A stretch of DNA of 64,000 nucleotides, taken from positions 49,128 through 113,127 of the forward strand of contig DATAYM010000017.1 in the NCBI GenBank assembly GCA_036272595.1, given 5' to 3'. The notes under the pieces were generated by a model, which ran no database searches, was not told where the DNA came from, and saw only the letters and a list, made by a program, of their open reading frames with translations. Of the stretch, positions 4,596 through 46,505 are shown one piece after another. A program made the position numbers and the translations under genes. How positions within the stretch are numbered: position 1 is the stretch's first letter; each line of letters opens with the position of its first letter. The DNA comes from Caulobacteraceae bacterium (lineage in GTDB: Bacteria > Pseudomonadota > Alphaproteobacteria > Caulobacterales > Caulobacteraceae).

Positions 4596-4723
4596 GATCA
4601 CCGCCTAGGATCAGTGTGCATCCCTGAACACAGGCAGGCCCCCTCCGACAACCGGAGCGCGTATGATGACTCGACTACCGGCCAGCGCCTGGTCTAGGGT
4701 CTCTCCGTGGGCTGGAGGGGATC

Positions 4724-5152: not shown

Positions 5153-5508
5153 GCGACGATAAACCGCTCCTTATCGCGCCATCGTCGCTGATCCCCCAGG
5201 TGACGATGGTCCGCATTTACGCGGAGACCCTTGACCATGTCCGCGAGCATCATGGCCTCGAAATGGGCCAGATCGCGCCTAATCTGCCTTCGCTGACGGC
5301 AGCCGTGGTGTCCGCGATCACCAACCCTACGCATATCGAAAACCCTCGGCCGGGTTCTTATGTATTCGTTGACGCAGAGTCGACCAACGCCGCCGGCGAC
5401 GCCATCAGAGCACCCACAAAGATTATCTCAGGAACATCCGCTTTATTGAAAACGTTTTACTTCGCATCAACCACTGGTGAGCGAAATATTGTTTGGAGGA
5501 GGACTTAA
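5149..5508 (+). CDS. Putative RelE/BECR-fold ribonuclease toxin (PBECR/DUF4258-like)
   Basis: GTG start overlaps upstream stop (GTGA); LDHVREHH...ITNPTHI...YVF...LLKTFY...IVWRR pattern; directly upstream of DUF2283. Confidence 0.5.
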   Translation: MSDDKPLLIAPSSLIPQVTMVRIYAETLDHVREHHGLEMGQIAPNLPSLTAAVVSAITNPTHIENPRPGSYVFVDAESTNAAGDAIRAPTKIISGTSALLKTFYFASTTGERNIVWRRT

Positions 5509-7754: not shown

Positions 7755-8375
7755 TTACCGGTAGTGCGTCCGGTACCAGTAGCGGTGGTAGGGATAGGGC
7801 CGGTAGATCCAGCGGCCGCCGTACCAGATCCAGGGGTCGTACCAGCCGGGCGCGGCGTAGACCACCGGCCCGTAGATCGGCCCCGGATAGAAGACCGGGG
7901 CGCCGGGCCTGAGGCCATAGCCGGGCGGACAGTTGGGGTTGCTGTTGGCGCTGGCGTTGCCGATCGCGCCGCCGGCCGTGGCGCCGACGACGCCGCCGGC
8001 AAGCGCGCCGGCGCCGCCGTTGTAGCGGCCGCCGATCCCGGCCCCGAGCGCCGCTCCGAGCAGGCCGCCGATCACCACGCCGGCGGCGGTGCTGTTGGCG
8101 TGCTGGGCGACACAGTTGCGCGCCGCCCACTGTTCGGCGGCGTAGCTGTACTGCTCGTCCTGCGCCCGCGCCTGGTCGGAAGTCTCCGCCGGCTCGTCGC
8201 CGGGCTGGTAGCCGGGCGGCGGCGGCACGTTGTACTGGCCCTGGTCGTACTGGCCCTGATCCGGCGGCGGCGTTCCGTTGGGAGAGGCCGGGGGCTGGGC
8301 GCCGGCGGACTGGGCGGCCGAGATCGCCATCGCCGCGGCGCCCAGGATGAGGACTGTGGTTCGAAGACGCGCCAT
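7755..8375 (-). CDS. Secreted glycine-zipper protein with Pro/Tyr/Trp-rich C-terminus
   Basis: Signal peptide; GVVIGGLLGAALGAGIGG...GALAGGVVGATAGGAIG. Confidence 0.75.
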   Translation of the reverse strand: MARLRTTVLILGAAAMAISAAQSAGAQPPASPNGTPPPDQGQYDQGQYNVPPPPGYQPGDEPAETSDQARAQDEQYSYAAEQWAARNCVAQHANSTAAGVVIGGLLGAALGAGIGGRYNGGAGALAGGVVGATAGGAIGNASANSNPNCPPGYGLRPGAPVFYPGPIYGPVVYAAPGWYDPWIWYGGRWIYRPYPYHRYWYRTHYR

Positions 8376-8480
8376 GGGGCTGCCTCCAGATCGAGGGTAT
8401 TGACCGCTCAACGAAGCGGCAAGGTCGCGGTTCCCGCGACCCCGCTATTCGTCATGGCTGACGTGGTCGGGAGGACGGCG

Positions 8481-9608
8481 CTAACGCTGCGCGATCAGCT
8501 TCACCTTCACCGTGGTCGACAGGCCGGGGCGCAGGCGGGCGAGGCCGGCCTGGCCGGGATCGAAGCGGATGCGCACCGGCACGCGCTGGACGATCTTGGT
8601 GAAGTTGCCGGTCCCCGGTTCGAACGGCAGCAGCGAGAACTGCGAGCCCGACCCCGGCGCGAAGCTTTCCACTTCGCCCTTCAGGGTCGCCCCCGGCAGG
8701 GCGTCGACCTGGATGAAGGCCGGCTGGCCGACGCTCATGCGCGAGACCTGGGTCTCCTTGAAGTTGGCGACGACATAGAGCGCATCCAGCGGCACGATGG
8801 TCATCAGCCTGGCGCCCGGCTGCACATAGTCGCCCGGCTCGACCTGGCGATCGCCGACCACCCCGTCGATGGGCGCGCGCACCAGCGTGTGGGACTGGTC
8901 CTGGCGGGCGAGGTCGAGCGCCGCCTGGGCGCGGGCGACAGCGGCGAGCGCCTGGGCGAGGCCGGCCTCCAGCGTCGCGCGCCTGGCCAGGGTGACCGAG
9001 GCCTGGTTGCGGCTGACGTCCAGCTCGGCGCGGCTGTGCTCGGCGTCCGACTGGGCGGTGATGGCCGCGGCGCGGTACTGGTCGGCGTCGCGCCGGGCCA
9101 CCGCGCCGGAGGCGACCAGGTCGTCATAGCGCTTGCGGTCGGCCTGGGCGCGGTCGCTCTGGGCGTCGGCCGAGCGGATCTGGGTCTGGGCGGCGCGGAC
9201 GCTGGACGCCGCCAAGGCCTCCTCCGCGCCTTGCGAGACCAGGGCGGCGCGGGCGGCGTCGACGGCCGCCTCGGCGTTCTGCAGGTCGGCCGCGGCCGAG
9301 GCGACGCGGGCGTCGAACTCCTCCGGATCGATCTGCACCAGCGGATCGCCGCGATGGACCCGCTGGTCGTGCTCGACCAGCACGGCGGCGATCAGGCCGC
9401 GCACCTTGGGGGCCACGGTCGAGCTGTCGGCCTGGATATAGGCCGCGTCGGTGGAGACCGCGCCCTTGGGCCAGGCGATGAAGGCCGCGCCGGCGACCGC
9501 GACGGCGACGGCCGCGGCCACCACCACCGCCGTCCGCCGCGAAAACGGCGCCCGCGCGCGCGGCGGCGGGGCCGGCGCCACCACCTCGTGGAGGGTGGCG
9601 GTGCTCAT
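8481..9608 (-). CDS. HlyD/EmrA family membrane fusion protein
   Basis: VSTDAAYIQADSSTVAPKVRG; VVANFKETQ; GNFTKIVQRVPVRI. Confidence 0.93.
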   Translation of the reverse strand: MSTATLHEVVAPAPPPRARAPFSRRTAVVVAAAVAVAVAGAAFIAWPKGAVSTDAAYIQADSSTVAPKVRGLIAAVLVEHDQRVHRGDPLVQIDPEEFDARVASAAADLQNAEAAVDAARAALVSQGAEEALAASSVRAAQTQIRSADAQSDRAQADRKRYDDLVASGAVARRDADQYRAAAITAQSDAEHSRAELDVSRNQASVTLARRATLEAGLAQALAAVARAQAALDLARQDQSHTLVRAPIDGVVGDRQVEPGDYVQPGARLMTIVPLDALYVVANFKETQVSRMSVGQPAFIQVDALPGATLKGEVESFAPGSGSQFSLLPFEPGTGNFTKIVQRVPVRIRFDPGQAGLARLRPGLSTTVKVKLIAQR

Positions 9609-33131: not shown

Positions 33132-33213
33132 TGAAGGCGTCCTTATCCCACGATTCTTCGAGCCCATGTCCCGAACCCCCCGCTGAAACGGGAACGCCCC
33201 GAACACCGCGACT

Positions 33214-33254
33214 GTACATGCTTTGTTCCGAGGCGCAATGTTCTTTTTTCGTTC
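33214..33254 (-). promoter_or_regulatory. Two alphaproteobacterial LexA (SOS) boxes upstream of recA
   Basis: gtac-atgcttt-gttc (33214-33228) and gttc-ttttttc-gttc (33240-33254), i.e. GAAC-N7-GTAC and GAAC-N7-GAAC on the minus strand. Confidence 0.8.
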
Positions 33255-33451
33255 CCCCCGACGTTCGAATGCGCCCGGCGGTAGACGTGCTCATAGAGAT
33301 TGGCGGTGACCGCTAGGGTTTGGCGGGATTTCACGGGATTTCGTGACACAAGGTGGGATTCGCAGCGGCTGCTCAGAGCCTTCTGAGAACCTTCAAAGAC
33401 CCCTTTCAAAAAATTGACCCGAGCGCCGCCCGTATGATTTGCTCGGGGCTA

Positions 33452-34069
33452 TCAGGTGGGTGGGGGGTCTTCCCAGTCAGCATGGGCGGCCCGGGCCGAG
33501 GGGCGCAGCCCGGCTTCTGACATACGGTCGAGGTTATCGCGCGCGACCCGCTCCTGATGGTCCTGGTGTGCCTTGAAGGCCGCCGCGTCGATCACAGCCT
33601 TCTGCAGGCGGGCGATATCGTAATCGCGCCAAACCACGTAACCGGTCCGGGTCACAACCAGCGTGCCGAGGAAGCCGATTGCACCGGATAGAACTCTCAG
33701 GACCGGCTCTGGCCATCCGACCGAGTGCCGGAGCGAATCCGGGATCGAGCGGCCGAAGATCGCGTCGTTTCCGACGACGACAAGCCCTATGATCAACAGG
33801 AGGAAAGCCGCAACAACGGCAAAAATGACCAGATACTCCTGGGTCAGGTCGACGATGGCCGCGGTAAGGCGTTCTCGCCGGTTGCGGTCGATCGATTCCC
33901 AGCTGAGCGATGGCATGGTGCGGTTCAGACGCACCAACAGGCCGGCCGCGATGATCGAGAGCGGCGACGTGATGACCTGAGCCGAGTTCAGGAGCCGCTC
34001 AAGCGAGACCTGCCACCCGAACAGACCGCCTACGGCCAGGCAAACCAGAAGAGTGGCCGCAGTTCCCAT
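33452..34069 (-). CDS. Multi-pass membrane protein, gene 2 of a coupled pair
   Basis: Several hydrophobic segments (LLVCLAVGGLFG; PLSIIAAGLLV; YLVIFAVVAAFLLLIIGLVVVG; VLSGAIGFLGTLVV); TAATG overlap with upstream gene. Confidence 0.75.
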   Translation of the reverse strand: MGTAATLLVCLAVGGLFGWQVSLERLLNSAQVITSPLSIIAAGLLVRLNRTMPSLSWESIDRNRRERLTAAIVDLTQEYLVIFAVVAAFLLLIIGLVVVGNDAIFGRSIPDSLRHSVGWPEPVLRVLSGAIGFLGTLVVTRTGYVVWRDYDIARLQKAVIDAAAFKAHQDHQERVARDNLDRMSEAGLRPSARAAHADWEDPPPT

Positions 34070-35094
34070 TAAGCATCAATCTTTCCATCCTGAACAAATC
34101 GAGAATACACGGTCCGCAGCTGGTCGGCCACATTGTCGAAATCCAGCAGCGTGCTGCCTTGGTGGGGCACCGAGAATGGCATCCGGGTGCGAAGGATTGC
34201 GTCGCCGTCCGAGAGACGCCCGTCCTTGCCCTCGATCTGCACCCTCGCGTCGCTCATGTCGGCGATGTCGTTGGCGAGTTCCTTGATCTGCCGCTTGCTC
34301 TCGGCGGTCCGCCTACCGCGTACGGCCAGGGATGCGTCGGCGGTGATGTACTCGCCGGGCCCGAGGGCTTTGATCAAAGACTCGGTCTTGGCGGAGCCTA
34401 GGATGGCCTCCCAGACCGGCTTGGCTTGTTCGGAGCGCAGGGCAGCGTCCTCGACGCGGCGCCTGGTCTGGACCTCGCGAGTTGGCCCGTCGGCGACGAC
34501 ACCAACAACGGCCGGGATGGTGCGTCCGGTGACCCGTAGTTTTTGAATGTCTCCGACATCGCCGACCGACCTGTCGAACTCGGCCTGCAGCCGGAAGGAC
34601 AGCATCGGATCGACAGTCTTGGTGCGCTCCTTAAGGAGCCAGTTGAGGTAGGCGTGGATCCGGTCTGAATCCATTGCCTGGGTCTTGAGGAAAAACAGGT
34701 GGTCACCGATCGCCATCCAGTACGCCAGGCCGCGGATGAATTGTGATCCGGTCGGTGCCTTACGTTCTTCCAGGTCGAACACCTCGGCGAGGGTGATGTT
34801 CGAAAGTTGCTGGGTCGAGGCCTTGAGGCGCAAGAGCGCCTGAAGGCCTTTCTCCTCCGAGTAGCAGAACTCGCCGTAGATTGCGGAGGTCAGGTCTGCG
34901 ACGCGGTTGAGCATCATCTCGCCGCCGAATTGGTCCTGGAGTTGGAAGACCCGATCTTCGACGCGCTGTGACAGCGAAGCGCCGGCGGTGTCCACCGTCT
35001 CAAGCGCCTGGCGGCAAAGGCCCTCAAGCGGCCACGCGACGGGGCCGTCGGCCTGGAACCGCCGATAATGCACCATGTGATATACGGTCGTCAT
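34069..35094 (-). CDS. Soluble hypothetical protein (341 aa), gene 1 of a coupled pair
   Basis: Long open frame, no TM segment, no recognisable catalytic motif. Confidence 0.8.
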   Translation of the reverse strand: MTTVYHMVHYRRFQADGPVAWPLEGLCRQALETVDTAGASLSQRVEDRVFQLQDQFGGEMMLNRVADLTSAIYGEFCYSEEKGLQALLRLKASTQQLSNITLAEVFDLEERKAPTGSQFIRGLAYWMAIGDHLFFLKTQAMDSDRIHAYLNWLLKERTKTVDPMLSFRLQAEFDRSVGDVGDIQKLRVTGRTIPAVVGVVADGPTREVQTRRRVEDAALRSEQAKPVWEAILGSAKTESLIKALGPGEYITADASLAVRGRRTAESKRQIKELANDIADMSDARVQIEGKDGRLSDGDAILRTRMPFSVPHQGSTLLDFDNVADQLRTVYSRFVQDGKIDA

Positions 35095-35177
35095 CGCCCA
35101 CCCCGAGTCGCTACGCGAGTATCCCGCATTTCCTACATATACTACAGGCTGTAGCCTGCCCGGCCGAAAGGGTCGAC

Positions 35178-35594
35178 ATGAAGCTCAGCGACTTCATCGA
35201 AGAGACACTCTACGAGATCGCGGTGGGCGTGAAGGCTGCCCGCCTCCGGGCAAGAGACCTGGTGGCCATCACGCCCTCAAGGCTGAACGGGACAGGCATC
35301 GACGAGAAGAGCTACGTCGACTTTGATGTGTCGATCGTGGTCTCAGAGGCGGACGCCTCCAAGCGAGGAGCGGGCGGCCGCCTCGGCGGCGATATCCAGG
35401 TGGCCGCCATCGCTAAGGTTAGCCTTGGCGCCGGCGGGAGCGCCGAGACGAGCAGCGACTCAAGGTCCGAGCAGACGCACAGGGTCAGCTTCAAGGTGCC
35501 GGTCTATCTTCACGCCAACTACTTCGGGAACCCGGCGACGGCCCAGGAAGCCGAGGAGTTTCTGAACTCGCGCGCGGCTTCAGGTGGACCATAG
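35178..35594 (+). CDS. Hypothetical protein, Trypco-like
   Basis: MKLSDFIEETLYEIAVGVK...VDFDVSIV...G-rich...HRVSFKVPV. Confidence 0.65.
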   Translation: MKLSDFIEETLYEIAVGVKAARLRARDLVAITPSRLNGTGIDEKSYVDFDVSIVVSEADASKRGAGGRLGGDIQVAAIAKVSLGAGGSAETSSDSRSEQTHRVSFKVPVYLHANYFGNPATAQEAEEFLNSRAASGGP

Positions 35595-35788
35595 CGGCGT
35601 TCTTCGCCTTCTGGGCGCTCGGCGCGCTGGTGTTCGGCGTCTTCCATGTTCGCTGGCTGCGCCGCCATGCCGCTAAGGGCGAGAAGGTTCCGGAGCCGGT
35701 CTTTCAATTCGTGTTCGGTGTGATCCTAGCCCCGATCGCGCTGGCGATCGGGGCGGCTCTCGCCTGGACGTTGCTGCGTGCGCTCTAG
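35591..35788 (+). CDS. Small two-TM protein, no canonical start found
   Basis: IAAFFAFWALGALVFGVFHVRWLRRH...VFGVILAPIALAIGAALAWTLLRAL*; overlaps the upstream stop. Confidence 0.4.
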   Translation: MAAFFAFWALGALVFGVFHVRWLRRHAAKGEKVPEPVFQFVFGVILAPIALAIGAALAWTLLRAL

Positions 35789-35793
35789 GTCGG

Positions 35794-36306
35794 TCAGTTC
35801 AGCGGGCGGGTAAACGACCGCATCCTTCCGTTCACGCATCGCGTGGTGATCATGAACCGCCTGAGGTACACCCGCCCGTCGCGCCCGACGACGTAGCGAT
35901 CGACCTCACCGCCGGCGCCACCATCGCAGGTAGCCTGCACCGGCTCTCCCGATCTGCCGGTCAGAGGCTCCACGTCGCCCCTCATGACATAGAAGTAGCG
36001 GCCGAAGCCCGAGTAGCCGTTGGCCCAGTCCCGACCATAGATCATTGCCACCGTCTTGGTGGGCGCGCCGGGGACCGAGAAGAAATCCTGCCGGTTCATA
36101 GCTTCGAACGATGACGAACTCGAAAGCGTGAAACAGCCGATCGGCTTGCCAGCGCCCGAGTCCGCCGACTTCGCTGCGTAGAGGTGCTCCTCGGTGTCGC
36201 AGGCCAGGACCCCAGGACCGTTTGGATGATAGAGCGGGTCGGAGAGCGCCCTTCCGGCAACTGCGCAAGCCAAGACGACCAGTGCGGCGAAGCCACCCTG
36301 TCTCAT
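35794..36306 (-). CDS. Secreted hypothetical protein
   Basis: Signal peptide MRQGGFAALVVLACAVAGRALS; four Cys in the mature region. Confidence 0.65.
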   Translation of the reverse strand: MRQGGFAALVVLACAVAGRALSDPLYHPNGPGVLACDTEEHLYAAKSADSGAGKPIGCFTLSSSSSFEAMNRQDFFSVPGAPTKTVAMIYGRDWANGYSGFGRYFYVMRGDVEPLTGRSGEPVQATCDGGAGGEVDRYVVGRDGRVYLRRFMITTRCVNGRMRSFTRPLN

Positions 36307-36370
36307 CGGCTCCCCGAGCCAGCGACCCAACATCTGCGTCAAGCACGCTTTGCGCGTCATACCCTTGCGA

Positions 36371-36829
36371 TCAATTCGAATTCGTCCGGCACTGGTAGTG
36401 ATCGATCTCGTCCAGCGTTGCGCCCTCGACCATGACTTGCGAGCTGCCTTGCGCTCCCGCTGGAAGGTTGGTCGAGTTGGTCATCGCATTGGCGAGCAGC
36501 GTATTGGCCTTCGAATAGAAGGCGCAGTCGGCCTCCACATACCCCAGCTCTTGGCCGCTGTTGTTTTGAAAGACGGCGGGAAAAATGACATAGTCGGAAG
36601 ACAATCGTGGACGTCCAAGCGTGACGGTCAGCGCCTGGGCCGCAGGCGCCGCCGGCACCAACGCGGACGCCACACTCGCGCCACCAGCTGGCGGGGCGAC
36701 CACCCCGCTCGCGGTCCCCTGGCTTTCATGGAGCGCGTACCCGATGACGAGGCCCGCGACCCCACCGACGACGAGACCTGTCGCGAAATTGCCGCGGCGC
36801 TTTGCCGGTGGCGTCGCTAATTCCGTCAT
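36371..36829 (-). CDS. Membrane-anchored protein with FxLYD-like domain
   Basis: N-terminal TM; VFQNNSGQELGYVEADCAFYSKANTLL...NLPAG. Confidence 0.7.
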   Translation of the reverse strand: MTELATPPAKRRGNFATGLVVGGVAGLVIGYALHESQGTASGVVAPPAGGASVASALVPAAPAAQALTVTLGRPRLSSDYVIFPAVFQNNSGQELGYVEADCAFYSKANTLLANAMTNSTNLPAGAQGSSQVMVEGATLDEIDHYQCRTNSN

Positions 36830-36903
36830 CGCCGCTCCCCAGTAGGTTGTTGGAGTCTAGGTCGCGGAACATCGCTGCGCAACCTGCGATGCCGCTGGAG
36901 GGC

Positions 36904-36933
36904 GAGCGGCGCGGGCTCCAACCCGCGCCGCTC
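36904..36933. other. Perfect 12-bp hairpin with loop complementary to a nearby site
   Basis: gagcggcgcggg-ctccaa-cccgcgccgctc; ttggag at 36850-36855. Confidence 0.7.
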
Positions 36934-37017
36934 TAGTCGCCACGCCCAGCCCCCCCCGCAGGGGCTGTCGCGCCCTCGGCAGCCGGAGAGATTACCGCCG
37001 AGAGGGCGTGACGATGT

Positions 37018-38823
37018 TCAACCCGGGAGCGCTCCCCGGTTCCAGCGAAAGTCCACGGCGGCGGCCTTTTCGACGCGGCTCACCGACGTTCCTTGCTCGG
37101 CCTTGACCACGATCGTCCCTAGGAGTTGGGACGAGGAAGGCTGTGAGGCAGGGGCCGGTGCGACCGCCGGCGACGCGGCCCTGACTAAGAGCGTCGGCAA
37201 GTGGCCGGCGGCTCGATCATGGGTTTGGCCTGGTGCGGCCATCGCGTTGCTGATCGCGATATGAAGCTTCGAAAGCGACGGCAAGCCCGGCAGCGACCGG
37301 CGGTCCGGTGTCGGCTTCCAATCTGCCGGCGACCGGTGGCCGGCCGGCGAACCAGGGCTTGGCGACGGGCGGCCACCCGGCACACTACGGCCTGGCTGCT
37401 GCTGGCCGCCAGGCGCGGGGGCCCTCGCCAGACCATCAATCAGTCGGGTGATCGCGCCAAGCGCTGGGAACTGGATAGAGAGCGCCGCGCCGCCGGCGTT
37501 TAGCAGCGTTTGAAGCCACTTCGGCATTTTCGACTCTAGGTCGGTGAAGGCCTTCTCGATCTTCCGACAACCGTCCTCCAAGCCTTTGACGATTTCGTCC
37601 CAGTGATTGTGTAACTCGACCAAGGCGAAGATGAACAAGCCGATCACGACAATGGCGGCCTCGATCGCCAAAGCGATGAGGCCAATCGGGTTCGCGTCCA
37701 TCGCGATATCGAGCAAAGTCATGGCGTCGGTGAGGCCGAAGACCGCCGGTATGAGGCTGGCGACCAGCACGGCCGCGCGGACCGATGCGATGCCGATGCT
37801 AACGATGCTTCCGGTCGCCGAAACCAAAGCCACGGCGGCTTGCGTCGCCAAGACCGCAGACAAGCCGATGAACGCCCCTTTCACCACATTGGTGTTGTCC
37901 GAGAGCTTGAGCAGCTTATCAGCGAGATCAACCGCCTTGACGATGATCTTCTCGATCTTCGGAAGCATAGCCACGAACTGGTCTGCGAGCTTGGTCACCG
38001 CGTCGGTGAAATGCTTCACGTCGTCGTCGTTGAGGCTCTCTATCCACTTCGTGACCTTATCGATCGCGTCTGTAAGCTTGGGGATCAGGGCAATGCCAAT
38101 CCGATTGCCGAGGCCAAGGACCGCCAGGCCCATGTTTTGTTTGGCTTCGATAAATTTCTTGGAGGCCTCGGCGTCCTCCTTGGTCATGACAGCATGAGCC
38201 CGTTGGAGCTGGTCCATCAGGGCGGCGATCTCTTCGCGCGGCGCTCTCAGCAGCGGCGCCATGTCGACCCAGGACCGGCTGAATAGTCCCTGGGCGGCGA
38301 CCGCCAGCGCGCTTCGGTTTTTGATCCGCTCCATGCCGTCGAGAATGCGCGTGAACATCGCGCCAGGGTCGTTTGAGAGGGCCTTGATCTCCTTCATGCT
38401 GACGCCGGCCAGCCGCAGCGCTTCGATCTCCTGCTTATTGCCCTTCAGCGCGTTGCCGACGTGCAGCTCCATCATCGCGAAGGCATGGTTCAACCCATCC
38501 GCGTCGACGCCGAGCTGTTTCGCGGCCCAGCCCAAGCGCTGCATGGCCTCGACGCTGACACCGGTCTTCTCTGAGCTGCGCAGCAGGGATTCGCCCATCT
38601 CCGCGACGCGGTTGGTGACGTCCCAAATCGCGCGGCCAGCCTCGGCCGCAGCGCCGGCGATGGCGGCGCCGCCGATCAGCTCGGTAAGGCCGAGCTTGGT
38701 GAACGCCGCGTGAAGCTTCGAGGTGCGCTGTTCGAGCGCCTGCAGGCCGGCGCCGATGCGCCGCAAGGGCGCGGTTGCGCGGTCCAACGCCTCGACAACC
38801 AGGTTAAGCCTAAGATCCTTCAT
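37018..38823 (-). CDS. Phage tail tape measure protein-like
   Basis: MKDLRLNLVVEALDRATAPLR; SEKTGVSVEAMQRLGWAAKQLG; ANPIGLIALAI; follows the tail chaperone. Confidence 0.85.
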   Translation of the reverse strand: MKDLRLNLVVEALDRATAPLRRIGAGLQALEQRTSKLHAAFTKLGLTELIGGAAIAGAAAEAGRAIWDVTNRVAEMGESLLRSSEKTGVSVEAMQRLGWAAKQLGVDADGLNHAFAMMELHVGNALKGNKQEIEALRLAGVSMKEIKALSNDPGAMFTRILDGMERIKNRSALAVAAQGLFSRSWVDMAPLLRAPREEIAALMDQLQRAHAVMTKEDAEASKKFIEAKQNMGLAVLGLGNRIGIALIPKLTDAIDKVTKWIESLNDDDVKHFTDAVTKLADQFVAMLPKIEKIIVKAVDLADKLLKLSDNTNVVKGAFIGLSAVLATQAAVALVSATGSIVSIGIASVRAAVLVASLIPAVFGLTDAMTLLDIAMDANPIGLIALAIEAAIVVIGLFIFALVELHNHWDEIVKGLEDGCRKIEKAFTDLESKMPKWLQTLLNAGGAALSIQFPALGAITRLIDGLARAPAPGGQQQPGRSVPGGRPSPSPGSPAGHRSPADWKPTPDRRSLPGLPSLSKLHIAISNAMAAPGQTHDRAAGHLPTLLVRAASPAVAPAPASQPSSSQLLGTIVVKAEQGTSVSRVEKAAAVDFRWNRGALPG

Positions 38824-38959
38824 AGAGCCGCTCAGCCTGTGTTCGCCACATCAGGAGTTCGTCGACGTCCATTTCCCAAAGCTCGGAGGTCGGGAAATGA
38901 AAGACGACGGCCACGTCGCCTAAAACGTCTCGCCAGTTTCCTGGCGCCCAGGAAAAAAA
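38810..38959 (-). CDS. GpE'/gpT-like -1 frameshift extension of the tail assembly chaperone
   Basis: WRDVLGDVAVVFHFPTSELWEMDVDELLMWRTQA in the -1 frame after a T7 slippery run. Confidence 0.8.
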   Translation of the reverse strand, partial: FFSWAPGNWRDVLGDVAVVFHFPTSELWEMDVDELLMWRTQAERLYEGS

Positions 38960-39213
38960 CCGCCGACGATCTCGCCCAAGCCCTCGATATCTTCCAGATC
39001 CAGCTCATCGACCGCACTGCCTGAAAGGCCTGTCAAAGCTCCGATCAGGGAAAGGCTTTTGGCGATGGAGCCGTCCGTTCGGTCGAGCATCCGCAGGTCC
39101 TTGGACTTCAGCCGGCGAATGGGAACCTCGGTTATTTCTTCCTGGCGTTCCTCGCCGCCCTGCACCCTGGTGCGCAGGACGATCGGATGCTTCAGCTGAT
39201 AGGTGTCGCTCAC
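38920..39213 (-). CDS. Tail assembly chaperone (Mu gp41 / P2 gpE-like)
   Basis: QLKHPI...RRLKSKDL...LIGALTGLS...VDELDLEDI...GGFF. Confidence 0.85.
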   Translation of the reverse strand: MSDTYQLKHPIVLRTRVQGGEERQEEITEVPIRRLKSKDLRMLDRTDGSIAKSLSLIGALTGLSGSAVDELDLEDIEGLGEIVGGFFPGRQETGETF

Positions 39214-39404
39214 GGGCGCTGTCCCTTTCGTTGCTTGGTTGCAAGGAAATCGGCTTCCGACACTCCAAGCGCCCTGCACGCCGCCTGTTCATCCACTGTC
39301 AGTTTGGTGGCCGGTGCTGGGGCCGCTGCCTTGAGGAAGGCGGCTTCGGAAACGCCGATCGCCGCACAGGCAGCGCGCTGTTCGTCCGTCAGGCCCGTCG
39401 TCAT
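39210..39404 (-). CDS. Small protein with two tandem Mu scaffold C-terminal-like motifs
   Basis: LTDEQRAACAAIGVSEAAFL and LTVDEQAACRALGVSEADFL. Confidence 0.65.
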   Translation of the reverse strand: MTTGLTDEQRAACAAIGVSEAAFLKAAAPAPATKLTVDEQAACRALGVSEADFLATKQRKGQRP

Positions 39405-39802
39405 GCGGCCGGCCCCGATTGGGGTGACAGGCCGGTGGGTTCGATAGTCAGCGTGACCTCCGCGTTGCTCACCCTGAAAACGAAACACGGATGAAGTCCT
39501 CGACGGTGCCAGGCATTCATGGGGTTTGCGGCAGCTTCGGACCAGCGGACGGTTGCGTAGGGTGCGCCAACCCCAAACTCTATGTGCGAGAGCACGCCAA
39601 GGACGGGCTCAGCGCCAATCGAGATCGGAGCCGACCGGAGATAGTCTCTGATCGCCGTGATAACCGGGCCAGCGTCGGCAAGTTGCTGGCCATCGCTGTC
39701 GATCGCAGAGATTGGACTTAGGCGGACCGAAACCGAACGGGCCGAGAGCAGGCGTTGGGATGCCGCGAATGTCGCCTGCCATCTCTTTTCACCATTGTTC
39801 AT
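39401..39802 (-). CDS. Hypothetical protein, possible remote Mu prohead protease remnant
   Basis: DAGPVITA...PI...GVLSHIE...YATVRWSEAAA...RGLHPCF loosely follows the Mu_Pro order; catalytic motifs not evident. Confidence 0.4.
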   Translation of the reverse strand: MNNGEKRWQATFAASQRLLSARSVSVRLSPISAIDSDGQQLADAGPVITAIRDYLRSAPISIGAEPVLGVLSHIEFGVGAPYATVRWSEAAANPMNAWHRRGLHPCFVFRVSNAEVTLTIEPTGLSPQSGPAA

Positions 39803-39972
39803 TTGGCACTCTCGTTCTCTGTCGCCAGAATTTTTCGGACCACTCTCACCGGCACCCCGCTGTCCCGGGCGATCGTGTCGACCGACCGCCCTCCTAGGGA
39901 TGTTCGCCTGACCTTGGTCGCCGCGGCTTTGAAGGCCTTCCGACGGCACAGCCGGAGATTTTTCGGTTTCAT
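39799..39972 (-). CDS. Small basic HTH-like protein (57 aa, below ORF-track cutoff)
   Basis: MKPKNLRL...GRSVDTIARDSGVPVRVVRKIL; ATGA overlap with the downstream ORF. Confidence 0.55.
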   Translation of the reverse strand: MKPKNLRLCRRKAFKAAATKVRRTSLGGRSVDTIARDSGVPVRVVRKILATENESAK

Positions 39973-40005
39973 GTGCTGATTGCCGGGTTACGGGATGACG
40001 GCTGG

Positions 40006-40389
40006 TCATTTGATAAGGCCCTCGCGGCGCAGCTTGGCGCGCTTCATGCGGACCCAGCGGGAAGAGCATCCGAAGACTTTAGCGATGTCGCCGGCCGAGC
40101 GATCGGTCAAACAGGCTTCTCTGATGAGGGCAGCCCGGCCGGCCGGCCCCGAGGAAACATCAAACTGTCCCGAGCCGAACTCGGAGGCGACAATCTCCGC
40201 ATTCTCCTGGCCGACGAGCTTCGAAAAGATGTTGTGCGGTTCCGGGCTCGACGGGACGTAGACCTGTCGGCCGCCGAAGGCCTCCTGGATCTTAAGCGCC
40301 ACGAGGCCGCCTAAGCGCAGCGACACAAAGCCGACCAGATCAGTCGGCGCGTCGGCGTCTGTGGTGATCTCTTTCGCCCCTCGCGTCAT
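40006..40389 (-). CDS. Mor/C family transcription activator
   Basis: ALKIQEAFGGRQVYVP; SAGDIAKVFGCSSRWVR. Confidence 0.8.
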   Translation of the reverse strand: MTRGAKEITTDADAPTDLVGFVSLRLGGLVALKIQEAFGGRQVYVPSSPEPHNIFSKLVGQENAEIVASEFGSGQFDVSSGPAGRAALIREACLTDRSAGDIAKVFGCSSRWVRMKRAKLRREGLIK

Positions 40390-40605
40390 GGCGCCACAAA
40401 GCGGGAATTAGTTCCGGCGGAACCACCCTGAATAAATTCAGGGTCGGCCTATGTGCCGTTGCCGTTCAACGCCCGCGCCCCCGGTAGATGATCGCCTTCC
40501 AATCCAGTCGATCGTCCTCTGTCGCTCGGGCTAGCGCGTGAGAAGCCTTGAGAGGCGTGAGAAGCCCGTTGACGATCCGCGACGAGGAAGTAGGTCATCT
40601 TGGCC

Positions 40606-40965
40606 CTAAGAGGCCGCCACGGTCGCGCGCTGGCGCAGCCTTAGGGCCAGACGACCAACGGCAGATTTGCTGGGGAAGCGACCTGAGCCGAACGCCTCGG
40701 CTCCCAGCCGCGCGATCTCCGCCATCGAGACCAGGCCGTCCCGGTCAGTGATGAAAGCCATAACAGCGGGTTCGCGTTCGAAGGGTGACCGCCGGCCGGC
40801 TTCGCGCGGCGGCAAGAGCTGGTGGTGGACCGCCGCCACCAAGTCGACCGACCACGCGCGCCCAGGGCCGAACTCAGCGGCGATCTCGACGGCCATCGCC
40901 GAGAAGGTGCGCTCGCGGCTCGCGGCGACGAAGGCGCGGATGTCGGGATCGGTCGGATCAGGCAT
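40606..40965 (-). CDS. Phage hypothetical protein, HTH-like
   Basis: DPDIRAFV...SMAEIARLGAEAFGSGRFPSKSAVGR; overlaps the gp16-like stop. Confidence 0.6.
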   Translation of the reverse strand: MPDPTDPDIRAFVAASRERTFSAMAVEIAAEFGPGRAWSVDLVAAVHHQLLPPREAGRRSPFEREPAVMAFITDRDGLVSMAEIARLGAEAFGSGRFPSKSAVGRLALRLRQRATVAAS

Positions 40966-41371
40966 CCGCGTGCGCCTTTCGCTCGACCATCGCCTTGAGG
41001 GCGGTGATCACCGGACCGGCCTTACTCGCGTTCAGAAATCGGAGCGCCGAGACCTTCGCCTGCCGTTCCAGAAATGCATTAAGGCTGGCCTCGGTTGGTG
41101 CGTCCGCGTAGGCGGTCCAGAGCTTGCGGATCGCGGCCACTTGGCCAGGCGATGCCATGCCGTCGCGCTCGCCGAACGATCGGCGGCGCGACGAGCTGGT
41201 GAAGCCCAGCCCTCGGAACCTGTCCATGACGGCATCGAAGCCGCGACCGTCCAAGTGGCTCGCGCTATGGGTGCCCCCGAAGTTTTCGAGGATCGCCCGA
41301 TAGTCGTCATCGCCAAGGCCCAGCTGGGCCTTGGCGACTCTCAGCAGGGCCAGCTTAGACTTGTGCAGCAT
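40958..41371 (-). CDS. Mu gp16/GemA-like protein (DUF1018)
   Basis: KLALLRVAKAQLGLGDDDYRAIL; ASPGQVAAIRKLW; VITALKAM. Confidence 0.85.
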   Translation of the reverse strand: MLHKSKLALLRVAKAQLGLGDDDYRAILENFGGTHSASHLDGRGFDAVMDRFRGLGFTSSSRRRSFGERDGMASPGQVAAIRKLWTAYADAPTEASLNAFLERQAKVSALRFLNASKAGPVITALKAMVERKAHADA

Positions 41372-41663
41372 GCTGATCCGCGTGGAGGTCTTCTTGAATC
41401 TTCGTGACCCTCGCTATCGTCTCGCGCTGGAGCGCCGCGGCGCCAGCCAGCAGCGCGTAAATCGTCTCATCATAGCTCAAAGAAACACGGGCAAATTCCG
41501 GCGTCAGCGCGTAGTCCGCGGCCAGGTCCATGATCCTTCCAACATGCTCAAACGCCACATTCGCGATCCAGAGGTCGGCGGCGAGACGCCCGGCCGGTAC
41601 CCGTGGATCGCCGCTCGCCGGCGGACGATCGGCATTAGATTCGATCACTTGCGGGTTGGTCAT
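41355..41663 (-). CDS. Phage hypothetical protein
   Basis: Open frame in the operon between MuB and gp16-like. Confidence 0.55.
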   Translation of the reverse strand: MTNPQVIESNADRPPASGDPRVPAGRLAADLWIANVAFEHVGRIMDLAADYALTPEFARVSLSYDETIYALLAGAAALQRETIARVTKIQEDLHADQHAAQV

Positions 41664-41672
41664 GGGTGCCTT

Positions 41673-42500
41673 TCAGGCTGCTAAGAAGAGAAAATCACGC
41701 ACAAGTTCGGCGGTGACGGGTTGCCGATCAGCTTCGATATTCAGTTCGCTTAGAAGGTCGGCCGCGCGGCGGAAGCTGCGGTCGGCGCGGCCGGTTCCGA
41801 AGTGGTGGATAACAAGTTGAAGTGCATTGGGATCAACCAAGCCGCCGGCTTCGAAGAAGAGCTTCAGGTCATCATCCCTCACGTCTGCATACGTGAGGGT
41901 CTCGACATAGAGCGCACGGTCGGCGACCGCCGCCGATAGGACACTTTGTCCGCGCCGATCGCTCTTCAAGATGAACTCGTTGTTGCCGACGAAAATCAGG
42001 CCGATGGGAAAAGGTGAATAGCCGCCCGTCGCATCGTTCAAGAACCGCAAGACCTCGATCGCTTCAGGCGACAGGTTTTGCGCTTCATCAAATATGATCG
42101 TGTAGTGCGGGCTCCATTGCTCGGCCGATTCACGTTGTTGCTTGCGGCTGCCGTCAAAGCCCGCCCATTCACAGATCACGCCAAACATTCGGCCCCGGAG
42201 CATGACGTAATTGGTCGGGGTGGTGTCGCGATGGGCGGATGGGCAAACCTCGTAAATGGCCTCAAGCGCGAGCTGGAGCGCCGCGGTGGACTTCAGCCCG
42301 CCCTTGGGTCCAGGCGGAACAGACACCACCGCCACCTTGCATTCTTCCGCGGCCTGGAACCGTCCTATCGCCGTGCTTTTGCCGATGCCGGGAGGTCCGG
42401 AAAAGACCGCTATGCGCCGTCGATCGTGAGATTTTTGCATGTGTGCGAGAAGGGTGCTGACGACCGAGGTCGCCACGTATCCGCTGTCGTCAGCCGACAT
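41673..42500 (-). CDS. MuB-like AAA+ transposition ATPase
   Basis: Walker A GPPGIGKS; Walker B IIFDEAQNL; LIFVGN; overlaps the transposase end. Confidence 0.88.
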   Translation of the reverse strand: MSADDSGYVATSVVSTLLAHMQKSHDRRRIAVFSGPPGIGKSTAIGRFQAAEECKVAVVSVPPGPKGGLKSTAALQLALEAIYEVCPSAHRDTTPTNYVMLRGRMFGVICEWAGFDGSRKQQRESAEQWSPHYTIIFDEAQNLSPEAIEVLRFLNDATGGYSPFPIGLIFVGNNEFILKSDRRGQSVLSAAVADRALYVETLTYADVRDDDLKLFFEAGGLVDPNALQLVIHHFGTGRADRSFRRAADLLSELNIEADRQPVTAELVRDFLFLAA

Positions 42501-44457
42501 TGCGTTGCTCTCCCATGAGGCGGGCGGTGCGGCGGTCGCGCAGGGCTCTCGCGCGCTCTTCCGGCGTCTGAGCGGGCGTCGGCTCGCTGGCGCTGCCGAT
42601 GGCCAAGACCAGCGCTGTCGCAGCCCCGCCGGTGTCCAGACGGTCGACCCGCCCGGCGACTGTCGTCACAGGCAGCCGAGCGACCATTCGGCGCTTGATG
42701 GCTATAGGGTCAGCCGGCGGCGCTTCTTGTTCGAGTAGAGCCACATGACGCCGCTGGCCGGCCTGTCGGCGCGCGGATTCGAGTGCGCCTTCTTCCCACA
42801 GGGCGGGCATGGCGTAGTCTCGTTCGAGATACGCCCAACTGCCGTCCCGCTGCTGAAACAGCGGCTCGCCCCCGCGACGCCAGGGCAGCGCCAGCGCTAC
42901 GGTCGTCCCGGCCGGCAGCGCAGACAGCGCCGGGTGGTGAAATCCTATGCCGTCGATCGAGACACGGCCGTCCCTGGCCTTGCGGGTGTCGTGTTTGCAG
43001 AAGGCCGCGTCCAGCGCGAGCGGGTCAACACGAATTGGCCGCCAGCCGGCTTGGACTTTTTCGCGGAGCCATTCGTCTGGCGAGCGGCCGCCCCATTGGC
43101 CGCCGACCGGCCTGGCGTTGAAGTCCTCGACCATCATCGCGTGGTCGGTGCAGAACTCATCCCAAGAGCCCGGATAGGGCTTCGGCGGCCTTCCAACGGT
43201 CTGGGTCTTCTTGTGCATCCGCTCGCCGCCGGCGTAGCCTGGGAGCTGGGCATAGACATAGCGGTCCATCATCGCGAAGCGGCCCTCGATCGGCTTGGCC
43301 GAGGCGTTGTAGGGCCGCGCATAAATGACGGTGCGAACGCCGGCCGGGTTCACCAGCTGCAGGGCGCCTCGGAGCTTCTCCTCCAGGCCGGCGAACTCAG
43401 AACCGTTGTCGAGATAGAGCGCGCGCGGAAAGCCCCATAGCGGCTGCTGCGTCATGGCGATAAACGCCTCGATGACATGCTCCTGCCGGATGCCTTCACC
43501 CTCGGCGCACATGACGAGATGGCAAAAGATTCGGCCCGTTCCAGCGTCCACAAAGCCGATGTTTTTGCCCCACGTGGCGGAGCCGTCCGGGCGGGTCACG
43601 ATCACGTCGATCGGCTTCACGTCCGCGATGACGATCTCCATCGGCGCATAGCAGGTCCAGTCTCGACGGATGCGCGGCTTGGCGTCGTCGAAGGCCTTGG
43701 CGTTATTCTTTTTGAGGTTGACGACGCGGTATTCGGAGAATCGCTCAACGTGGCGGCGGGACAGTCGATAGGCCGCTGGCGCCAGCTCGACGCCGCGGGC
43801 CTCGCACAACTCCAACAGCCGGAATTCGAGCAGGCGGCGGACTTCGTTGACGCCTGACGCTTCGGCTGTCGATGCCCACAGCCCTTTGGCCTCGACCACG
43901 ACCAAGCCGCCAATTTGAGCAAGTAAGTCTTCGGGTTGTCCGGCCGCGCGGAACGCTCGGTCAAAGACACGGGAGACCACGACGCGAGGCTTGCCGGCGT
44001 CTTGGGGCAGCTTTCGCGCTAGCCCCGCCATTCCATGCTTCTCGTAGAGGTCAATCCAGCGCTGAAGGGTGCGCTCGCTATGCTTGCCCTTGGCGGCCTC
44101 GACGCGGATCTCCGCCGCCCGCCCCGCTGTCCCCCGCTCATGGCCGATGGCCGCCTCGATCGCCTTGAACCTGGCCGCCACGCGTTCGCTCTGATTCTTG
44201 AAGACCGCCAGCCGCTGCGCCGTCGGCGCCAGGACGGACAGGGCGGTGCTCATGGGCCGTTCAAGGGCCGCTGAGAGGCTTCTGAGAGACACCTGATAGC
44301 ATCGGCCCGAACGACCACCACGGCCCTTCACGGTGCGAACCTCAAGGGCGATGCCCCGCCATGATTCGGCGGCGACGGCCGCGGTTGCCGATCGACGGCC
44401 AATGCCGGCCATCGCGGCGACCTCGCCGACGCTCAGCCAATCGCCCCCAGCCGCCAT
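42490..44457 (-). CDS. MuA-like DDE transposase
   Basis: N-terminal HTH (WLSVGEVAAMAG...GRGGRSGRCY); IADVKPID, LYLDNGSEF, KPIEGRF triad. Confidence 0.9.
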   Translation of the reverse strand: MAAGGDWLSVGEVAAMAGIGRRSATAAVAAESWRGIALEVRTVKGRGGRSGRCYQVSLRSLSAALERPMSTALSVLAPTAQRLAVFKNQSERVAARFKAIEAAIGHERGTAGRAAEIRVEAAKGKHSERTLQRWIDLYEKHGMAGLARKLPQDAGKPRVVVSRVFDRAFRAAGQPEDLLAQIGGLVVVEAKGLWASTAEASGVNEVRRLLEFRLLELCEARGVELAPAAYRLSRRHVERFSEYRVVNLKKNNAKAFDDAKPRIRRDWTCYAPMEIVIADVKPIDVIVTRPDGSATWGKNIGFVDAGTGRIFCHLVMCAEGEGIRQEHVIEAFIAMTQQPLWGFPRALYLDNGSEFAGLEEKLRGALQLVNPAGVRTVIYARPYNASAKPIEGRFAMMDRYVYAQLPGYAGGERMHKKTQTVGRPPKPYPGSWDEFCTDHAMMVEDFNARPVGGQWGGRSPDEWLREKVQAGWRPIRVDPLALDAAFCKHDTRKARDGRVSIDGIGFHHPALSALPAGTTVALALPWRRGGEPLFQQRDGSWAYLERDYAMPALWEEGALESARRQAGQRRHVALLEQEAPPADPIAIKRRMVARLPVTTVAGRVDRLDTGGAATALVLAIGSASEPTPAQTPEERARALRDRRTARLMGEQRNVG

Positions 44458-44670
44458 CTATGCAGCCGCCGCGCTCTCTCGCAGGATGATCCTGCGCAGT
44501 TCTTTGGCCGCCGGGCCATTCTTCAACCCAGCCAAGGCGCGGTGAGCATATGAAGGGGTCACGCTGTTGCGAAGGCACCAGGCGCGGAGCGAATCGCCTT
44601 GTTCGGTGAAGCCGGCGCGCACCCTGCGCACCAAGGCTTCGCTTCCGTTCAACTCGATTGTGTGCTGCAT
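44458..44670 (-). CDS. Ner/Cro-like DNA-binding protein
   Basis: VRAGFTEQGDSLRAWCLRNSVTPSYAHRALAG; divergent from the repressor. Confidence 0.75.
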   Translation of the reverse strand: MQHTIELNGSEALVRRVRAGFTEQGDSLRAWCLRNSVTPSYAHRALAGLKNGPAAKELRRIILRESAAAA

Positions 44671-44686
44671 TGCCGGCCCCGCGAGT

Positions 44687-44730
44687 TTGTCCACAGGTGG
44701 ACGGTATTGACCGCTTGTCCACACGTCAAC
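44687..44730. promoter_or_regulatory. Putative immunity operators
   Basis: ttgtccaca at 44687 and 44715; gtccac-ag-gtggac dyad between divergent ner and repressor. Confidence 0.55.
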
Positions 44731-44743
44731 ACGGCTGCCGTCA

Positions 44744-45253
44744 ATGCTTGAGGATCAGGTTCGCCGTATTCGAGAGGCGCTAGGCGCGGCCAACGACTCT
44801 GAGTTGGCGGAGAAGCTAGGGCTGGGTCGATCGGCGGTATCGAGGTGGAAGGAGCGCGGGGTAATTCCGGCGAAGTTTCGCTTCCTGGCTGAACGCGACG
44901 GCCGCCATGCTATTGAGCATGGCTCCCAGTTCATCGAACACGACCGCCTATACGGCCATGCCGATCATCACTATTGGCTGAGGGCCGCTCTGCAATTCAT
45001 TCCTCCGGGATATGGCGCGAAACTGGCGGCGCCAGACCGCGCGCGACTGCTTGAGTTCGTGCTCACCCGGCTTATGGGAGCCGCCGCCGACGCCACTGTC
45101 CGAGAACTCGGAAAGCGCCGCTGCGAGAGCGAGGAAGACCTTCAGGCGTTGCTAGAGGTTCTCGGTTCCGGCACCAGCTCGGAGACGGGCTCGATGTACG
45201 CGGACCGCATAGCAAGGGTCCTCGCTGAAGGCCTCCCAGCAAACCCTACCTAG
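44744..45253 (+). CDS. Phage CI-type HTH repressor
   Basis: RIREALGAANDSELAEKLGLGRSAVSRWKERGVIP. Confidence 0.8.
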   Translation: MLEDQVRRIREALGAANDSELAEKLGLGRSAVSRWKERGVIPAKFRFLAERDGRHAIEHGSQFIEHDRLYGHADHHYWLRAALQFIPPGYGAKLAAPDRARLLEFVLTRLMGAAADATVRELGKRRCESEEDLQALLEVLGSGTSSETGSMYADRIARVLAEGLPANPT

Positions 45254-46182
45254 GGGATCGCTGGAAGTGCTGTGACCTCGCCGATCCGCGCATGCCAAGC
45301 CTTGTCGCCCGCCTCGATCCCCATCATGTCGCCCTGCCTGGTCAGCCGAAATCGGCCAGTCCCAGTGCTTGCGGGCGAAAGGGCGGCCAGTGTGTTCGCT
45401 GTTTCGACCGAGAGAAAGGCCGCGGCTGTATCGACGTGCTCCATGGCCAGCCGCATCGTCTCTAGCGCCGCGCCGTGGCCTGCCAGCTTCTCCGCGCAGA
45501 TGACTGGGGCAAGCGCCGCGGTCCAGGCGCGCAGGTCGGGGTGGCCGGCATCGGCGATCATGTCGGTCAAGATCACCCGCGCCTCCTGCAGCCGCTCTCT
45601 GTCTCGCCAGGTTGACCGAAGGAAGGCCGCACCCCTGATGAACCCGATATCCCGCAGCGTGCGATCGACGTCGATTTGCACCGGGCCGCCCCCGCGCGTC
45701 TTGTCGAAGATGCCCTTCCGGATCGCGGCCATCTTGGCCATGCGGTTCTGCAGTTCATCGACGCGATCGACGCGCGAGCTGACCCGGTCGATCCAGTCAA
45801 TCCGCGCTTGAAGCCGGCCTAGCGCCTGGGCTAGCTCGGCGGCGTTCTGGCGCTCGCGCTCTTCCTGCAGGAAGAGGTTCTCGGCAATGTTTGACGCGGT
45901 CTGCCAGCCAGCCTGGTCCGGAGCATTGCGGCCCAAGGCAAGCCACCGCGATCCGGATGGGAGGCACACTGGACAAGGCGCCATGTCCTTAAGAGGACGA
46001 AGGCGACTATCGATCTCAACCGGGCTGGCGAGCACGACCAGTTCGCCCTCGGCCGGCGGCCGCTCCGTGCTGATGGTCGGGAACGTCTCCGGCTGTCCGG
46101 TGGACTTTACGTGTTCCAGGAAGCGCCTGCCGAGGGCGATGCCTGGATTGCTCGGATAGACGGGATTCGTTTCGAGGTTCAA
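45250..46182 (-). CDS. Hypothetical protein (310 aa) with CPVC motif and coiled coil
   Basis: Long open frame convergent on the repressor. Confidence 0.6.
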   Translation of the reverse strand: MNLETNPVYPSNPGIALGRRFLEHVKSTGQPETFPTISTERPPAEGELVVLASPVEIDSRLRPLKDMAPCPVCLPSGSRWLALGRNAPDQAGWQTASNIAENLFLQEERERQNAAELAQALGRLQARIDWIDRVSSRVDRVDELQNRMAKMAAIRKGIFDKTRGGGPVQIDVDRTLRDIGFIRGAAFLRSTWRDRERLQEARVILTDMIADAGHPDLRAWTAALAPVICAEKLAGHGAALETMRLAMEHVDTAAAFLSVETANTLAALSPASTGTGRFRLTRQGDMMGIEAGDKAWHARIGEVTALPAIP

Positions 46183-46505
46183 GCGCCGCTCCGAGCCTCA
46201 ACCGACAGAAGACTCCGTGGATCATGTATCCATCAGGCGAGCGGCACAAGAATGGGAGGGCGCGATCCGCTGGCCAGCACTTGGCCTGCGCAAAGCGGCC
46301 CGACTCCCCAATAGACTCCTCAATCTGCTGAGATCATTCTCACCACAGCTGATTTCATTGCGTTTTTCGCGGGCCTCTATTGAGGAGTCCCGGACCTCCT
46401 CAATAAGCTCCCGAAACCGGGCGCAAACCCAATCCGTATCAGCGAATTCCATCGCCAAAATCTAACGGCCGCTTCCGTCAATCTCAAAAAGCGCGCCCAG
46501 CGGAT

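Follow-up and report, generated by a model that had tools for sequence, protein, structure and literature searches.

A 64,000-nucleotide (nt) stretch of contig DATAYM010000017.1 from a Caulobacteraceae bacterium, hereafter the window, carries a reduced Mu-like transposable element whose late genes have contracted to a short cassette. Comparison with related elements and with intact Mu-like phages indicated that positions 37018-40389 form one translationally coupled operon, running from a Mor-family activator through orfB, orfC and a tail assembly chaperone (TAC) with a -1 frameshift to a tail tape measure protein (TMP). The same comparisons indicated that the cassette goes back to a complete Mu-type late region that lost its lysis, terminase, portal, F, capsid, head-completion, sheath, tube, baseplate and fibre genes, that the protease/scaffold gene gpI was split, leaving orfB as a dead protease domain and orfC as a repeat of the C-terminal tail, and that the result is a conserved, selectively maintained module of an element family in Caulobacteraceae. 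Rather than debris, the cassette is probably the tool kit of a phage parasite. On the strength of the predicted products and of precedents, we lean towards a satellite-like role in which the element would remodel or interfere with the head and tail assembly of a helper Mu-like phage. The element and its operon genes, the latter all on the minus strand, are as follows.

33282-46499 (ends approximate): reduced Mu-like transposable element of ~13 kb, carrying the Mor-to-TMP operon
40006-40389, minus strand: Mor-family activator, 127 amino acids (aa), matching phrog_836 late transcriptional activator at 1e-11
39401-40009, minus strand: long form of orfB, 202 aa, its ATG overlapping the Mor stop
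39401-39802, minus strand: conserved core of orfB, 133 aa, with no family match alone and linked to gpI by profile comparison
39799-39972, minus strand: 57-aa open reading frame (ORF) with a helix-turn-helix (HTH)-like pattern, weak matches only
39210-39404, minus strand: orfC, 64 aa, matching the end of PF10123 twice
38920-39213, minus strand: TAC, 97 aa, GTG start, PF10109, of the P2 gpE / Mu gp41 type
38953-38959, minus strand: slippery heptamer T TTT TTT inside the chaperone gene
38810-39213, minus strand: chaperone -1 frameshift product, 134 aa, of the gpE+E' type, ending inside the TMP gene
37018-38823, minus strand: TMP, 601 aa, full length, matching PHROG TMP families at 1e-26

A preliminary description, made from the letters alone, had reported three 4-nt start/stop overlaps between successive genes. 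Read directly and recomputed, all three were exact: ATGA at 39799-39802 joins the stop (TGA) of the 57-aa ORF to the start of the orfB core, ATGA at 39401-39404 is shared by the orfB stop and the orfC start, and GTGA at 39210-39213 is shared by the orfC stop and the chaperone start. The reported overlap of the chaperone frameshift product with the TMP start was equally sound, the -1 frame stop (TAG, 38810-38812) lying 14 nt inside the TMP gene (TMP start 38823). One coupling had been overlooked: ATGA at 40006-40009 holds both the Mor stop and the start of the 202-aa form of orfB, which is the start picked by the public gene call. The coupled unit really begins with Mor, which is 39-57% identical to the Mor proteins of relatives. 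A promoter and terminator scan of the operon returned nothing above shuffles on the coding strand.

Relatives were sampled as loci (L-numbers) whose contexts were fetched around TMP homologues and related loci. Their late regions fall into the following arrangements.

L025, L027, L028 and L029: Mor-orfB-orfC-chaperone-TMP, the order of the window
L040: Mor-Mor-orfB-chaperone-TMP, without orfC
L032: orfC-chaperone-orfB-TMP, with a broken TMP
L031, L039, L030 and L026: Mor-gpI (full length)-gpT capsid-chaperone-TMP, intermediates
L003: Mor-gpT-TMP, with a TMP only 24-26% identical; probably an independent reduction
L033, L034/L037/L038 and L036: canonical Mu order, with gp27, terminase, portal, F, gpI, gpT, Gp36, Gp37, sheath, tube, chaperone, TMP, N and baseplate

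orfB had no Pfam or PHROG match, and neither a word-indexed protein search nor an exhaustive HMMER search, both very large, found homologues outside the element family; the sole match in the exhaustive search, P0136, was rejected as a junk repeat protein. A profile built from six orfB family members nonetheless aligned by hhalign with gpI of intact and intermediate relatives over 115 columns (probability 95.5%, E 1.4e-8), the matching region being the N-terminal protease domain of gpI. In the joint alignment the gpI invariants DYDH, ISP and YHAG were replaced or deleted in every orfB: IEF-x or ISIG takes the position of DYDH, the Ser is exchanged for H, R, Q or W, and a 6-aa deletion covers YHAG. 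The His of DYDH and the Ser of ISP, both invariant in gpI, are residues that we take to be catalytic, as in assemblin-type prohead proteases. An AlphaFold2 (AF2) model of orfB reached a predicted local distance difference test score (pLDDT) of 82 and a predicted template modelling score (pTM) of 0.76 from the alignment, and a pLDDT of 49 from the single sequence; its best fold matches, T4 gp21 protease and phage prohead proteases, were weak (E 1e-3 to 2e-2). By these comparisons orfB is homologous to the protease domain at the N-terminus of Mu gpI, but truncated and almost certainly inactive; the 'protease-like' label it had first been given holds for its ancestry and almost certainly not for its activity.

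In orfC, the ~25-aa tail that closes gpI (LT-EQRA-CAA-GVSEA-FL) occurs twice in tandem. It matched PF10123 solely at positions 309-330 of 330, twice, with a score of 24.7 bits that falls below the 25.2 cut-off; against phrog_328 the match covered positions 308-338 of 339. Identity to the gpI C-terminus of intact phage L037 was 64% over 22 aa, and the L036 gpI and the L028 orfC share the C-terminal end AHGRA. The orfC proteins of relatives carry 2-3 copies of the repeat (three in L027), and orfC is a candidate capsid-targeting or scaffold-mimic peptide. Neither orfB nor orfC matched the full-length PF10123/phrog_328 profile (about 330 aa), which gpI of L031 reaches at 7e-68 (phrog_328). The alignments identify orfB and orfC as the two ends of a single ancestral gpI gene from which the central scaffold segment has been lost. 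They are not once-separate genes joined by a deletion. The statement in the preliminary description that the genes of the unit lie many kilobases apart in Mu-type phages applies to the gpI tail and the chaperone, which are 5.5 kb apart in intact relatives, and not to orfB and orfC.

The chaperone matched PF10109 with 44.9 bits (cut-off 25; E 1.2e-11), was 55-70% identical to its counterparts in relatives and 44% identical to that of intact phage L037/L038, and had no match among cultured phages. T TTT TTT occurs in the window, L025, L026, L027 and L028, each time in the same codon phase. The -1 extension, 47-49 aa long, is conserved at the protein level in five elements (...WRDVLGDVA-VFHFP-SELWEMD-DELLMW--QAERLYE-S); it ends 14-20 nt into the TMP gene across elements and overlaps the TMP start in all of them. 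The heptamer and the conserved extension together predict a programmed -1 frameshift that has been conserved.

TMP matched phrog_2276 at 1e-26 and 20 other TMP PHROGs. Its homologues, 536-641 aa long, aligned over 100% of their length at 47-69% identity, and the TMPs of intact relatives measure 529-612 aa; a low-complexity linker varies, while the final 40 aa stay conserved. We considered whether the low-complexity region at aa 450-560 was a frameshifted tail and rejected this because relatives span the whole length with the C-terminus conserved. The TMPs of reduced elements cluster, at 56-98% identity over the first 220 aa, as against 36-46% to the TMPs of intact phages (41% for the window TMP and L037/L038). 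Searches of viral contigs gave weak partial matches only, and identity to cultured phages reached at most 27%.

Selection on the cassette was gauged between the window and L025, whose early genes are 87-92% identical, and between L028 and L029. Against L025, the ratio of nonsynonymous to synonymous substitution rates (dN/dS) was 0.11 for c, 0.11 for A, 0.09 for B and 0.12 for GemA, and 0.19 for TMP, 0.22 for the chaperone and 0.46 for orfC. Between L028 and L029, orfC differed at 8 synonymous and 0 nonsynonymous positions and orfB at 21 and 21, respectively (dN/dS 0.30); dN/dS for TMP was also 0.30. The low dN/dS values, the conserved frameshift site and extension, and the retained lengths and C-terminus of TMP argue that the cassette genes are working and are not debris. 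As would be expected of satellites, the elements form a conserved family under selection and not a one-off remnant. The intact frames, dN/dS of 0.1-0.46 and shared architecture are not those of cryptic prophages, with the L032 TMP and the L039 transposase as exceptions. The former lies in two frames (1285-2785), and the latter is split into ORFs of 239 aa and 350 aa (3587-5425).

The couplings themselves were less widely shared than the gene order. The 4-nt Mor-orfB overlap was present in 7/7 elements examined and was the sole coupling kept in all relatives: the junction into the long form of orfB measured -4 in the window, L025, L027 and L028/L029, and the Mor coupling was -4 in L031, L039 and L040 as well. 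By contrast, orfB and orfC are joined by -4 in the window and L025, +11 in L027 and +2 in L028/L029, and orfC and the chaperone by -4, -4, +23 and +84 in the same order, limiting the orfB/orfC and orfC/TAC overlaps to the window and its closest relative, L025. The expectation that homologous elements would show the couplings was thus borne out for Mor/orfB and, for the other two, in L025 alone. In four lineages the spacer from the Mor stop to the orfB core measures 33, 45, 102 and 207 nt; because all of these lengths are multiples of three and free of stops, the spacer is probably translated.

In the intact relative L037/L038, 4-nt overlaps occur at 14/40 same-strand junctions (~35%), including three in succession from portal through x386 and x268 to x1030. 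The overlaps in the window are no more than this lineage baseline, and at such a frequency a run of three is weak evidence by itself. Successive 4-nt couplings, the argument from which a streamlined, selected unit had been proposed, accordingly carry little weight; the proposal itself survives on other grounds, namely the recurring gene order, purifying selection and the conserved frameshift.

The HTH ORF had been taken as the start of the operon; it has no counterpart in L025, L027, L028, L029 or L040, and the conserved first coupling is Mor/orfB. This 57-aa ORF sits in another frame inside a window-specific 207-nt N-terminal extension of orfB, and its matches were weak (phrog_4629 0.005, DprA_WH 0.022, phrog_836 0.047), as was its score against the Mor-family hidden Markov model (6.8 bits, E 3e-4 against one sequence). 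GC content at third codon positions (GC3) over its bases is 0.71 in its own frame versus 0.52 in the orfB frame, which favours the 57-aa ORF. That it is a real small gene, or the relic of a Mor-type HTH, is a serious but lesser possibility, and we judge it somewhat more probable that it is not a gene; a recent duplicate of Mor was considered and rejected, as the profile match is only weak. The preliminary description had also suggested looking for expression after Mor induction. Since the cassette is coupled to Mor itself, its expression may not require a late promoter induced by Mor.

The element that carries the cassette lies right beside the recA promoter region, just upstream of recA. It encodes a c repressor (CI-type), ner-like, MuA-like and MuB-like proteins, GemA, Mor and the cassette, followed by five cargo ORFs. 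Its GC content is 0.60-0.66 versus 0.68-0.74 in the flanks, and terminal CAATCTC-type repeats are present at both ends, matching the ends of relatives. The transposase matched phrog_310 (4e-38), the MuB-like ATPase phrog_296 (8e-15) and GemA PF06252 (2e-24); the transposase was 29% identical over its core to that of L037/L038, marking a divergent MuA lineage. A single-sequence scan of genomes with the transposase returned no matches, and the relatives needed an alignment-based search. No gene for terminase, portal, capsid, sheath, tube or baseplate was found in the element or the 64-kb window, and the window holds no Mu late genes beyond the cassette. The element thus combines an incomplete virion gene set with its own integration and replication module (MuA/MuB-like genes and both ends), as satellites do. 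Neither a 5-bp target-site duplication nor an empty site was definable for it.

Among the remaining genes of the element, a cargo pair at the recA-proximal end (33452-35094) comprises a 341-aa protein (phrog_3482, 1e-50, function unknown) that overlaps a 205-aa protein with multiple membrane spans; the pair had no PADLOC or Pfam match, and PADLOC returned no matches on the cargo genes of the element. A 152-aa membrane-anchored protein (o152, 36371-36829) comes after TMP across a 188-nt gap containing a strong hairpin (36845-36935). Because it is conserved in L025 (85% identity, dN/dS 0.18), it may belong to the same unit as the cassette. Between the repressor gene and the left end lies a 310-aa gene (45250-46182; phrog_33379, 6e-9, function unknown), whose slot in L025 is occupied by a non-homologous 266-aa gene. 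Repeated CTCCTCAAT / ATTGAGGAG motifs occupy 46300-46420, from the side of the c gene towards the left end, and relatives have analogous but different repeats, TTGAGGAC and TTGAGAAAC; the difference is as expected of repressor operators co-varying with the repressor.

Alignment of the window (40006-46182) with L025 (3691-8893) revealed a sharp mosaic boundary. Identity was 87-93% for c, ner, A, B and GemA, 70% for o119, 40% for Mor, 32% for orfB and 68-71% for orfC, TAC and TMP (32-73% for late genes overall), and 81-85% for the downstream o152. The backbone on which the cassette is found in L040 is of the canonical MuA type (Pfam DDE_2, Mu-transpos_C); at 7818-8797 L040 has two tandem Mor paralogues with a 4-nt overlap, one of each of the family's two Mor types. 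L001 (4634-11580), which has the closest transposase (63%), is without Mor or late genes and encodes, directly after B, a SIR2_2 protein and then an OLD-TOPRIM/AAA and UvrD-helicase pair (Gabija-like). A DUF4236 protein of 491-498 aa, 63% identical between elements, stands between o119 and Mor in L027 (6167-7663), L028 (802-2277) and L040 (5628-7103) and is absent from the window.

Reduced Mu-like elements occupied the position upstream of recA in ten loci from different samples: the window (33207-33300), L003, L005, L008, L009, L013, L025, L027, L032 and L040. In all ten, the element ends ~25-45 bp upstream of the recA LexA box (GAAC-N7-GAAC); both orientations occur, and the site harbours two distinct transposase types. 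L039 adjoins dnaE, not recA. This placement suggests a regional target preference, or long residence with exchange of modules. Our literature search found no description of a recA-adjacent Mu-like element in Caulobacter or of Mu-type satellites.

We lean towards a satellite-like role because every retained product of the cassette is an assembly determinant and not a building block. The setting would be a complete Mu-like myophage growing in the same cell. Since the cassette is coupled to Mor, its expression would follow de-repression of the early operon, with which it would be expressed. orfC, with its multivalent display of the scaffold/protease tail, and the pseudo-protease orfB would compete with helper gpI at the capsid interior, and this competition would remodel or poison helper head assembly. 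The chaperone and TMP of the element would be incorporated into helper tails. The element could then travel in particles of the helper, or would at the least hinder it. Several observations weigh against this account. Intact relatives share 41-45% identity with the element in TAC and TMP and 27-32% in A, B, GemA and Mor, too distant for any sampled intact relative to be an obvious helper. The full cassette is not in every member, given that L040 is without orfC and that L032 has a rearranged order and a broken TMP. For late genes, dS between the window and L025 approaches saturation, codon-position GC signals are weak in orfB and orfC of the window (GC3 0.66), and purifying selection indicates function but not which one.

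Defence without transfer fits the sequence data equally well. Under this main rival, which is not exclusive of the satellite-like role, the products would do no more than poison the assembly of incoming related Mu-like phages; host and element would both be protected, and the element would spread by transposition and ordinary gene transfer and would not be carried in helper particles. Purifying selection and conservation are accommodated equally well by such interference, the lost catalytic residues of orfB suit a dominant-negative role, relatives carry defence-type cargo (SIR2 and OLD/UvrD in L001, GmrSD_N in L027), and PLE-encoded factors restrict helper tail assembly (PMC12987554). On the other hand, a full-length TMP, a chaperone and a conserved frameshift look made for assembly and not for mere blocking, the intact ends and transposase are expected of a still-moving element, the cargo genes lack PADLOC matches, and satellites interfere too. 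We consider interference alone an unlikely account.

Neutral decay is largely excluded. If random deletions of a dead Mu-like prophage had left the cassette, its overlaps and frames would be inherited or accidental, and the frequency of 4-nt overlaps in ancestral operons (14/40 junctions), the several reduced architectures, the broken TMP of L032, the split transposase of L039 and the lack of orfB homologues outside the family would all be unsurprising. Such decay is hard to reconcile with the same order and intact frames in at least five elements from different samples (TMP identity 47-69%), with dN/dS well below 1 for every cassette gene and an orfC in which 8 of 8 changes are synonymous, with the conserved frameshift site and -1 peptide, or with Mor-orfB core spacers (33, 45, 102 and 207 nt) that differ by multiples of three. 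It is also very improbable that the element is a host-domesticated resident of the recA locus, vertically inherited, patched by recombination with infecting Mu-like phages and carrying a cassette with a non-particle host function. Ten loci with an element at the same place, mosaic modules and two transposase types at the recA site are what such a history would leave. Yet orientations are opposite among hosts with 95% identical recA (window and L025 versus L027), the flanks from element end to LexA box cannot be aligned among the window, L025 and L027, L039 sits beside dnaE, the transposase is under strong purifying selection, and a tape measure and chaperone suggest no host function.

The element resembles several known systems in part and departs from each of them. 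Mu-like myophages, of which L037/L038 are the nearest intact ones sampled, share with it Mor, gpI (gpI/gpZ protease-scaffold in Mu), a chaperone with a -1 frameshift (gp41 in Mu) and TMP (gp42 in Mu) in that relative order, and 4-nt overlaps are common in both; the element, however, is without about 20 late genes, its gpI is split with the tail duplicated, and its cassette is fused to the Mor stop codon instead of lying behind lysis and packaging genes. Laboratory mini-Mu, known from mini-muduction, consists of Mu ends with or without A/B and is packaged by helper Mu. Like the element, it is a short element with Mu-type ends able to transpose, and headful packaging by a helper is a mini-Mu feature; the element, by contrast, belongs to a family that occurs in nature and has diversified, is equipped with its own regulatory genes, an assembly cassette and cargo genes, and favours a site upstream of recA. 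P4, the satellite of P2, is likewise small, with its own activator and a factor that redirects capsid assembly (the element is ~1/3 of helper genome size, 13 kb versus about 40 kb), but it lacks any tail gene, relies on a tyrosine recombinase for integration and works through an external scaffold (Sid). That Mor of the element could cross-activate helper late genes, as the P4 activator could, is conjecture.

In gene content, as distinct from sequence relationship, the element also resembles the PLE satellites of Vibrio cholerae phage ICP1. These bring a TMP and a TAC of their own, form chimeric tails with the helper and depend on their TMP for transduction (Mathur et al., Nature 2026, PMC12987554). 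Both are mobile elements without a full virion gene set that nevertheless have a tape measure and a tail chaperone, the role of these in the element being a predicted one. The PLE cassette is tmp-tac(-bhuB), and PLE uses a recombinase and RepA, whereas the element has Mu-type ends and A/B genes and is without a baseplate hub gene. For the head, the precedent is the SaPI capsid-size redirectors CpmB and Rcm, which vie with the scaffold of the helper for the capsid protein (PMC12409344). These are small proteins resembling the capsid-binding end of the helper scaffold, much as orfC consists of copies of a Mu-type protease/scaffold tail; orfC differs in having 2-3 tandem motifs per short chain and a paired pseudo-protease domain, and there is no sequence relation. 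As a wider proposal, which we advance tentatively and which may well not hold, the family would be natural self-transposing Mu-type satellites with a cassette that 're-keys' head (gpI-derived) and tail (TAC/TMP), and that home in either orientation to the zone 25-45 bp upstream of the recA LexA box. Such homing would imply target selection by a DNA-protein landmark. No description of a Mu-type satellite class was found in the papers searched.

Satellites are known for capsid theft, and a TMP brought by a satellite family, PLE, was first shown in 2026. If the satellite-like role is true, the Caulobacteraceae elements would be a second, unrelated lineage with a chaperone and TMP, on a Mu-type backbone, and tail re-keying would be a general parasitic strategy. 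The split of gpI, with one part now a dead protease domain and the other a repeated tail that is a candidate for capsid targeting, is a clear instance of a structural gene made into probable decoys, and orfC offers a short peptide motif that can be tested for binding to a Mu-type capsid protein. The repeated placement upstream of recA raises the question of how Mu-type transposition can be aimed.

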